Origin: Eledone cirrhosa
Taxonomy: Eukaryota
DNA length: 64,000 nt
Reading direction: 5' to 3'
Assembly (NCBI GenBank): GCA_964016885.1
Contig: OZ024745.1
Location: 30,194,001 to 30,258,000 of the forward strand
The translations under genes and the position numbers were made by a program. Below, piece after piece: positions 3,501 to 6,500 of the stretch. The notes under the pieces were generated by a model that searched no databases, was not told the origin of the DNA, and saw only the letters and a program-made list of their open reading frames with translations. Numbering within the stretch: position 1 is the first letter of the stretch; the number at the start of each line of letters is the position of its first letter.

Positions 3501-6500
3501 CCCTGAGATACAATGTATAAACGATTGATTATAGACCTTACAATAATTGTTTCTACTTTTGGCACAAGGCCAGCAAATACCCAGTACATTACTGGTACTT
3601 TATTTTATCGACCCCATAAGGATGGAAGGCAAAATTAACCTCGACGGGATTTGAACTGAGACCGTAAAGGGACGTAACTATGCTAGAAAGCATGGTGTCC
3701 CACCCTCTACCGATACTGCCAATTCACCGCCCTATACAGACCCTACAATAATGACCTTCAAAGGGCCAATATCCCCTTCTTAACTACTTATCTACTTACT
3801 CCACATGACAATCTATTTAGGCCACACCCCTGATGAGAAGCTTATTCACAGCAGGGAGATATATCTCCAGTTTGGAATTTGCTGCTGAAACTGCAAGACA
3901 TCAGCCATTGGGCCCCAACTCGCTAATATATATATATATATACACACACACACACACATATATAAATCATATTAAACATACCTTTTTTAGTTGCCAGCAC
4001 TTTAGCTTTTGCAGTAGCAAGTATTTCTGATGTTAAAAAAATTAACAAAATGGCTTAAATATTATTTGAAACAGCATATTGACATTTTCCCTTCATTTTA
4101 TTATATTATATATATATATGGACCCCAATCCCATCACTCCTCCTGATCTGAATAAAATCGATTTCCTCCAGAGTTATGAAAGAGATTGATAAAGAGGAAG
4201 TGAGGAAAAGATATGGAGGAAAAATCAACCCCAGTTCTAGATGAACATCTTTTTTATCAACCTCGAAAGAACAAATGGCAAAGTCAAACTTGGTGGGATT
4301 TGAATTCAGACCACAGAGAACCAAAACAAATCCTGCAAAGCAGTCTATCTGCCTTCTAACAACTATGCTAATTTACAGCATATGTTGTTTGTATATATAC
4401 TAAAAAAAAGAAAGAATCTTTAAATACACTTTTCCATATCTATTTTTACCTATTATCTGAGATATATATATATATATATATACACACACACACTCTGTAA
4501 GGTCATAGTGCTGGTGGCATGAAAAAAAGCACACTGTCCAATCTGTTAGGAGATAAAACTGGTAACATGATGAAAAACACTCAGCTGATTCTGTAAGATG
4601 GTACTGCCAGTTATGATAAATCCTCCTTGTACAGGCCATGAATTGGATGACATTAGGAAGGGCATTCAGCCATAGAAACCATGCCAGAATGGAATGTATG
4701 AGCAGAAGAGAGTCATCTGACCTTCCTACCCAGCCAGAGAATGTGACAACAGGTCTGACACATACAAGCATGGAAAATAGACATAAAATGAGGATATATA
4801 TATACGTAAATATATATATACAGCTGGTGATATGCCTGTAAGTAAATATTCTCTTTATCTGATATTTTGTAACTAACCTTACATAGATCAATAATGAAAT
4901 ATAGCTACAATGTATTATCATCACCTAGAAACGATCATAAAGCAGTGAAGTATATCTCTAATGACTTGATTTTTTATTTCATTGTTTTAACTTTTTATAC
5001 TATTGATATATATTGATATATATTGATTATTCGATTCCAGTATTGGCACACTAGAATTGAATAATCAAAACCGTAGTGGTATGTCGCATATCAAATCTTA
5101 TATTTTGTCTGATGAAAACGTACTTAAACACCATTGTACCTTTGAAATATGTATAATAAAATATATATTTTGATTATGAGAATATTTTTCATGTATTAAT
5201 ATTTTGAATAATATTAAATACTCCAGGAAAATCTACCGTTGAGTGCTTCTAATCTATTGTAAAATTGTATTCGTTGAATAATTAATGAACCATATTAATC
5301 TTTGGTTATATATATATAACTATATATATATATATATATATATATATATATATATATATATATATATATATATGTATTATATTAAACATACCGTATTCCT
5401 GTGTCCACACTCCTTCCTTTTTTGCAGCACGAAGTATTACATCTAATGTTGAAAAAATTAACAAAATGGCTTAAATATCATTTGAAACAAGATATTACAT
5501 TGACTTTCCTTTCCTCATATTATATATATATATATATATATATATATAAACTGATTAACCTCAGTGTCGCGTGATTGATTCTTTAGAATCTGCCACTGAC
5601 CAGAGGTAGTGAATTTTTTCAGTGCTCCGGAATTTAGTCCTCGCTAGCTTTGTTCCATCCACTGAATTATTATTATTTTTATATGGGTTCCTAGTGTCCG
5701 CGCATCGCCTGGGAACTTAGCTGAGAATAGACTCCCTGATGACGTAAGGAATTCTCTCTAGTTATATTATGTAACTATATTTATCCCCTTACAGAAACTA
5801 ATTAGTTGGAGTGAAAATTTTAGTAAGTTGATTTTTAATTTTTAAAATTTTCTTATTTTACGTCTTTCATATAATTGTTCTGCATCCCCCTGCATAGAAC
5901 CACAAAGGTACTAAGACATAACATATATATTTGCTAGCATAGGTGAACATCTGTACACATATGTTGGTAAATGTACTAATTCTCTATATTTATCTCCAAA
6001 TTATTTGTTGAGCAAAACTTGCCAAAATTTACTGCTGATTCATGGTAGTAGTAGGCTCTTGTCATAATACCACCCCGCTCCTAACTGATTAACCTCAGTG
6101 TCACGTGATTGATTCTTTAGAATCTGCCACTGACCAGAGGCAGTGAATTTTTTCAGTGCTCCGGAATTTAGTCCTCGCTAGCTTTGTTCCATCCACTGAA
6201 TTATTATTATTTTTATATGGGTTCCTAGTGTCCGCGCATCGCCTGGGAACTTAGCTGAGAATAGACTCCCTGATGACGTAAGGAATTCTCTCTAGTTATA
6301 TTATGTAACTATATTTATCCCATTACAGAAACTAATTAGTTGGAGTGAAAGTTTTAGTAAGTAAGTTGATTTTTAATTTTTAAAATTTTCTTATTTTACG
6401 TCTTTCATATATATATATATGTATATTTATGCATGGTCCTATAAATCACAAATTTCTGCCTTGTCCGCTAGCCACGTGATAGTTCTTAGCCATTTTTTAA

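Follow-up and report, generated by a model that had tools for sequence, protein, structure and literature searches.

In the available part of the published account (10.1101/2021.09.24.461719), the aphid megacycle is one huge gene with more than 100 same-phase micro-exons derived from internal tandem duplication; it has 118 exons in 15 repeat units and is secreted and relatively conserved, and bicycle genes are under strong positive selection. Schistosome MEGs, as far as the accessible text of PMC4350168 goes, form multi-gene families that occur in flatworms only and encode secreted proteins, with small symmetric exons that allow in-frame skipping, transposon-rich loci and high dN/dS. In Dscam arrays, similar exons stand in tandem with a related intronic sequence ahead of each, and a complementary docking site is their defining feature in the sections of PMC6071210 at hand. 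The upstream intron of vertebrate neural microexons is described as conserved and largely unstructured in the excerpt of PMC12871342 used here.

The stretch of DNA studied here, referred to as the window, comprises 64,000 nt of the octopod Eledone cirrhosa (contig OZ024745.1, positions 30,194,001–30,258,000) and contains 24 modules, each a micro-exon with an intronic element just upstream, every one on the minus strand (Table 1). A profile made from these 24 modules found 170 matches over 664 kb, on the minus strand throughout, running from 30,518,862 to 30,043,714. The count of 24 exons given in an earlier note on this sequence is thus correct for the window, but the array reaches far past it, with 167 intact and three partial modules over 475 kb. 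All 167 intact exons are of phase 1, a multiple of three in length, stop-free and in frame (51 nt in 111, 48 nt in 43 and 45 nt in 13), and together they amount to 2770 codons. Their donors read GTATGT in 146 cases and GTACGT in 18, and the introns are at least 693 nt long. Five divergent modules at the 5′ end are followed by a strict unit of nine classes (A to I) repeated 18 times, the units being spaced 16–38 kb apart, and modules are bordered by (TA)n tracts. The partial modules, at contig positions 30,478,505, 30,115,030 and 30,089,054, are an orphan element half, an element that an insertion of 1.2 kb has parted from its exon, and a donorless duplicated class E exon.

The array is built like the megacycle/bicycle genes and the MEGs, a likeness that concerns architecture and need not extend to family membership. 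It shares with them small symmetric exons (phase 1 in 167 of 167), a setting rich in transposons and accelerated nonsynonymous change (here omega 1.72, weaker by other counts). Unlike the aphid genes (10.1101/2021.09.24.461719), for which the available part of the source describes no shared intronic element, this is an octopod gene of phase-1 exons, 167 of them in a 9 × 18 order, with selection among copies within one gene. Whereas the MEGs, in the accessible text of PMC4350168, are multi-gene families, the array here is an insert in a large protein encoded by a single-copy gene with conventional exons on either side.

Table 1. Modules and related features in the window (window positions; all on the minus strand).
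Feature	Position	Strand	Details
Class A module	543..656	-	exon 543-593, element 618-656
Class B module	3110..3219	-	exon 3110-3157, element 3181-3219
Class C module	3982..4082	-	exon 3982-4026, 34-nt element 4049-4082, 5-nt deletion
Focal 51-nt phase-1 micro-exon, class D	5392..5442	-	donor GT 5391-5390
Focal U-rich tract and acceptor AG	5443..5464	-	
Focal 39-nt element, class D copy	5465..5503	-	-61 to -23 from acceptor; 38/39 modal
Focal candidate branch A	element position 33	-	at -29
Class E module	7663..7771	-	exon 7663-7710, element 7733-7771
Class F module	8832..8946	-	exon 8832-8882, element 8909-8946
Class G module	14467..14574	-	exon 14467-14517, element 14536-14574
Upstream intron of this class G module, two dispersed-repeat (transposon-like) fragments	14590..14900	-	farther fragment aligns between classes and served as a neutral baseline
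Class H module	16483..16590	-	exon 16483-16533, element 16552-16590
Class I module	17640..17743	-	exon 17640-17690, element 17705-17743
Class A module	19299..19412	-	exon 19299-19349, element 19374-19412, 31/39 modal
Class B module	24214..24323	-	exon 24214-24261, element 24285-24323
Class C module	27162..27261	-	exon 27162-27206, element 27228-27261
Class D module	32725..32836	-	exon 32725-32775, element 32798-32836, 39/39 modal
Class E module	35432..35540	-	exon 35432-35479, element 35502-35540
Class F module	36319..36434	-	exon 36319-36369, element 36396-36434
Class G module	38514..38621	-	exon 38514-38564, element 38583-38621
Class H module	40516..40623	-	exon 40516-40566, element 40585-40623
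Class I module	41650..41754	-	exon 41650-41700, element 41716-41754
Class A module	43438..43551	-	exon 43438-43488, element 43513-43551
Class B module	46390..46499	-	exon 46390-46437, element 46461-46499
Class C module	47304..47404	-	exon 47304-47348, element 47371-47404
Class D module	60546..60657	-	exon 60546-60596, element 60619-60657
Class E module	62057..62165	-	exon 62057-62104, element 62127-62165
Class F module	63152..63267	-	exon 63152-63202, element 63229-63267

The conventional exons lie upstream of the array at 30.704–30.742 Mb and downstream at 30.027 and 30.019 Mb. Because the exons on both sides match one Octopus bimaculoides protein in order, we infer that one octopod gene comprises the array and its flanking exons. 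The 3′ exon occurs as a single copy and also matches an Argonauta protein, and the host appears from these matches to be a single-copy orphan gene with homologs in Octopus and Argonauta. Protein searches with the 3′ exon return Octopus and Argonauta proteins only; the micro-exon peptides are too short as queries. Neither the 3′ exon nor the Octopus homolog gave a Pfam match above the cut-off (a weak HEAT_2 match only, E 0.094), and Atlas matches to HEAT-repeat families, all below 0.9, are a lead only. The searches gave no relatives for the N-terminal part of the host protein, none among longer proteins, nothing in the PDB and no named family. A profile of the exon peptides had no match in Octopus or Argonauta proteins, whose gene models may omit micro-exons, or in the 20-aa repeat of the host gene itself. 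A search of literature listings found no paper on this gene or element.

Several other features were observed in and around the host gene. A 1077-codon open frame of the same gene (30,711,009–30,714,239, minus strand) encodes a near-perfect tandem repeat of 20 residues rich in E, K, M and L, with 29 pattern matches; two low Pfam matches on this exon were dismissed, there being no passing stretch. The last exons of the gene are present twice in tandem, at a spacing of about 21 kb (29,995,597–30,003,049 and 30,015,001–30,024,000; 99.5% identity over 7.5 kb); the pair reflects either a duplication of recent date or a haplotype left in the assembly. Upstream of the host gene, an unbroken 522-codon frame at 30,810,528–30,812,093 (minus strand) matches UDP-glucose pyrophosphorylase (PF01704, E 8e-190) and is possibly an intronless copy. 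Between the array and the 5′ exons, a long tandem satellite, visible as repetitive open frames, occupies about 30,545,000–30,630,000 of the intron.

That a near-invariant element precedes all 24 window exons, as the earlier note claimed, is confirmed: the 21 copies of classes other than C agree with the modal 39-mer at 31–39 positions (median 36), and the 5-nt deletion reported for one class is present in all three class C copies. The element is 39 nt long (34 nt in class C) and averages 2.8 UGU triplets; at least 34 positions agree with the modal form in 155 of the 167 copies. It does lie near the 3′ splice site, but the span of 12–70 nt first given was too wide, the actual limits being -65/-56 to -27/-18. 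A search of the 3-Gb genome with a 25-nt core, allowing up to two mismatches, yielded 123 forward and 0 reverse matches (control 0), and among the 100 matches listed of these 123, all are inside the array. The recurrence of the element is beyond chance. All 11 non-array exon junctions of the host gene that were tested lack it, with scores of 17.5–27.5 against shuffle means of 17.6–23.0 and a median of 67.5 for the array modules.

Class-majority sequences bear out the observation that the element is more alike between classes than the exons, with 92% identity for the element, 69% for the exons and 36% for the peptides; the U-rich tract reaches 82% and the donor side (+3 to +22) 85%. The description of the deeper intron as scrambled does not hold throughout: about 400 nt on either side align within most classes, though poorly in class D. 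Two transposon-derived intron segments align even between classes and were used as a neutral baseline of the same age, with synonymous sites as a second baseline. Between-class rates use a mutation spectrum taken from the flanks, and counts are departures from the column majority on a star tree. The class statistics exclude the five divergent 5′ modules and the three partial modules; microsatellite columns and gap-adjacent positions were masked, pair counts omit class C, and the expectation for class D, which is almost without usable flank, was drawn from pooled rates.

Between classes, the element shows 15 changes (3.45 rate units), against 208 changes (10.56 units) in the transposon flanks and 13 changes (9.81 units) at synonymous sites, and is slower than either (p 1e-6 and p 0.007, respectively). 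The two neutral baselines are concordant (p 0.89), and the element is about 3-fold slower than both after correction for base and mutation type. In 39-column windows the flank never falls below 6.2 units, while the element stands at 2.9–3.6; the donor-side positions +7 to +22 evolve at 8.88 units and nonsynonymous sites at 17.20 (against synonymous sites, p 0.059). The comparison proposed in the earlier note, of the element with alignable intron of the same age, gives 92% against 74% identity over 17 class pairs. The upstream transposon flank belongs to a dispersed repeat: its copies in the different classes are 0.71 alike mutually and 0.72 to genomic copies, and they did not cluster in a tree, so that they are taken as orthologous on the strength of their common position and orientation. 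Four-fold sites taken alone are almost as conserved between classes as the element (5 of 70 changed, 0.52 of expectation, p 0.16; 99 of 102 pairwise identical). Overall, these sequence comparisons support real constraint on the element relative to intron of the same age.

A different picture emerges within classes, each of 18 copies. Where 171 changes are expected in the element, parsimony on class trees counts 140, a ratio of 0.82 (p 0.015 by a Poisson test and 0.063 by window resampling). The rate is below expectation in eight of the nine classes, class H exceeding its flank (32 vs 17.6), and the ratio of observed to expected ranges from 0.56 to 0.97 across methods (0.81–0.84 for tree-based ones). 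Variant frequency spectra do not differ between element and flank. Lesions of at least 5 nt (indels or insertions) occur at 1.77 per kb in the element and 1.50 per kb in the flanks; the element has 11 such events in 10 copies, two of them at its edges. The acceptors of these 10 copies lie near contig positions 30,429,625, 30,377,403, 30,350,367, 30,325,909, 30,310,896, 30,304,414, 30,164,955, 30,128,689, 30,113,783 and 30,086,026. In a comparison with little power, the exons of the 10 lesioned copies are open, have canonical splice sites and show 3.3 differences, against 3.5 in the others. These counts suggest that the element has been nearly neutral or weakly constrained since the 18-fold amplification. 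The GT and AG dinucleotides, on the other hand, show 0 changes against 21.7 expected, and donor positions +3 to +6 evolve at 0.27 of expectation.

The exons depart from neutrality in the opposite direction. Within classes, 335 nonsynonymous changes are found where 180 are expected and 66 synonymous changes where 61 are expected (omega 1.72, p 2.6e-5), although other counts give weaker ratios of 1.17 (p 0.50) and 1.38 (p 0.043). Nonsynonymous change proceeds at 1.6–1.9 times the neutral rate. The element is thus more conserved than the exons because of old purifying selection on the one and accelerated amino-acid change in the other. Exons that diverge faster than co-duplicated introns are also found in duplicated toxin genes, in the available part of PMC2474615; here the pattern occurs within one gene, and the element is slower than neutral as well, not merely slower than the exon.

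U2-type branch points contain TNA 18–40 nt upstream of the acceptor with no intervening AG. In all nine classes a TNA has its A at -24 to -33 and is AG-free from there to the acceptor, and the sole AG between -55 and -3 is the one formed by the candidate branch A. YTNAY is absent from -60 to -10 in classes H, G and I. The element covers this likely branch-point zone and extends past it. Its earlier interpretation as a splicing enhancer or branch-point scaffold agrees with this location and with the constraint against same-age intron, the function itself being a prediction from sequence. Like the eMIC/SRRM4-dependent microexons described in the available parts of PMC8797185 and PMC12871342, the array has a conserved intron between branch point and acceptor with little conserved structure. 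Unlike those microexons, its exons are fast-evolving; UGC occurs between -30 and -3 in just 2 of the 167 modules, and a CUAAY-type branch sequence (CTAAT) appears in one majority sequence of nine, that of class F. The eMIC code, as the accessible text of PMC8797185 presents it, is accordingly inapplicable.

We consider it somewhat probable that the element is a linear signal, combining branch point and enhancer, that promotes inclusion of each 45–51-nt exon, with many exons likely joined in tandem. It is unlikely, though to be weighed seriously, that an ordinary branch point alone matters, the remainder being passively co-duplicated AT-rich intron and the contrast arising from exon acceleration. 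The near-neutral recent rates and tolerated lesions of the element, the excess of nonsynonymous change in the exons and the low between-class divergence of four-fold sites would all be consistent with this. Yet the 3-fold slowdown survives the correction for base and mutation type, and the two halves of the element lag equally, at 0.30 of expectation in the 5′ half (-41 to -65; 6 changes vs 19.8 expected, p 0.0006) and 0.31 in the 3′ half. Nor is the element a mutational cold spot, its recent context-adjusted rate being 0.84. Early homogenisation between classes at the DNA level, by short gene-conversion tracts or a recombination-associated motif, would account for strong old and weak recent conservation, and (TA)n tracts do bound the modules. 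We regard it as quite improbable: within-class variants match the allele of another class 14 times against 13.6 expected, class-diagnostic bases are stable, and neither the neighbouring synonymous sites (9.8 units) nor the donor-side positions +7 to +22 (8.9) are homogenised.

The remaining alternatives assign the element a function of another kind. Of 162 copies, 74 have AATAAA immediately before the element, where the background is 3%. The element could then be the GU-rich portion on the downstream side of an intronic polyadenylation site, with truncated isoforms as the outcome. This is very unlikely, since AATAAA is missing from four of the nine classes and no stop codon is shared after the donor; where present, it is kept in 14–15 of 18 copies per class, as neutral decay of six A/T sites would predict. 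A selector of the Dscam type, pairing with one docking site to enforce one-exon inclusion, was raised in the earlier note and is reminiscent of the selectors in the available part of PMC6071210, in that one conserved copy stands before each tandem exon of similar length. Here the copies are near-identical and linear, adjoin the branch-point zone and have no docking complement: the best complement in the 729-kb pre-mRNA scores 33.5, against 35.2 ± 2.8 for 60 shuffles and 87 for a perfect match, five flanking regions of 3 kb give duplex energies no different from shuffles (fractions 0.28–0.60), and the genome-wide reverse search was empty. Strict nine-exon periodicity and invariant GT/AG in 167 copies also appear to fit frequent joint inclusion better, and we find the selector hardly plausible. 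As for an intron-encoded small RNA or structured hairpin, an imperfect AU-rich palindrome can indeed be drawn, but the weak hairpin proposed from it fails on covariation, with 4 compensatory against 250 broken cells (12 pairs, 149 non-C copies). There is no folding excess in any of the nine classes (z -0.8 to +1.3; focal region 0.24), and in window positions 1–20000 all Rfam matches fall below the gathering score, with none over any of 10 elements. We give this possibility almost no credence.

The linear branch-point-plus-enhancer signal could have arisen as follows. A founder micro-exon would have possessed a strong donor and the 39-nt upstream signal, needed to define an exon of 45–51 nt amid long transposon-rich introns. 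The 3′ half of the element would supply the branch adenosine, 24–33 nt upstream of the acceptor, and the UGU-rich 5′ half would bind a splicing activator; CELF-type proteins bind UGU-rich RNA. The cassette may then have been duplicated to nine classes under strong selection, after which the nine-exon unit was amplified 18-fold. With 167 in-frame exons present, leaving out any single one would have become cheap, and selection on the element would have eased. Loss of GT or AG would have stayed forbidden, likely through activation of out-of-frame cryptic sites, since in 166 of 167 modules the next GT past the donor would shift the frame, as would the first AG inside the exon in 60 of 167. Tandem inclusion is favoured by the strict periodicity, the invariant splice sites, the lack of a docking site and the intra-exonic 20-residue repeat in the same gene.

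A more far-reaching and rather doubtful proposal is an octopod-specific master switch, in which one RNA-binding protein would read the 167 near-identical copies and tune the number of positively selected micro-exons included, producing combinatorial length and sequence variants similar to those of MEGs. If true, a MEG-like pool of variants would come from a single gene in a free-living animal. Taken alone, the element most likely represents a signal of familiar type with a new sequence, and the importance of the locus is owed as much to the array and its apparent positive selection; such micro-exons in a 9 × 18 higher-order array, all within one single-copy orphan gene, are already unusual. 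The locus also offers replicates, provided by nature, for the study of how short exons are recognised outside vertebrates and flies: one splice cassette is present 167 times, with nine fixed variants and natural lesions in ten copies, and all could be read in one long-read transcript set. It would further illustrate how selection on a cis-element relaxes as copy number grows while the splice dinucleotides stay fixed.

A few minor observations concern the margins of the array and the exon peptides. Upstream of the array, the donor at 30,536,197 belongs to a candidate 30-nt phase-1 exon; the donor is array-like, and the element score of 27.5 does not differ significantly from 23.0 ± 3.7. At about 30,028,360, 120 nt before the large 3′ exon, an array-like donor and a short K/E-rich exon remnant adjoin a LINE-like fragment, with retroelement-like ORFs just upstream. 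Many exon peptides (e.g., that of window 8832-8882) finish in G-x-L-T/S-x-E-E/D, which we take to resemble a helix-turn-capping motif as in the SHOCT domain; if this resemblance holds, the folding unit would span exon junctions.
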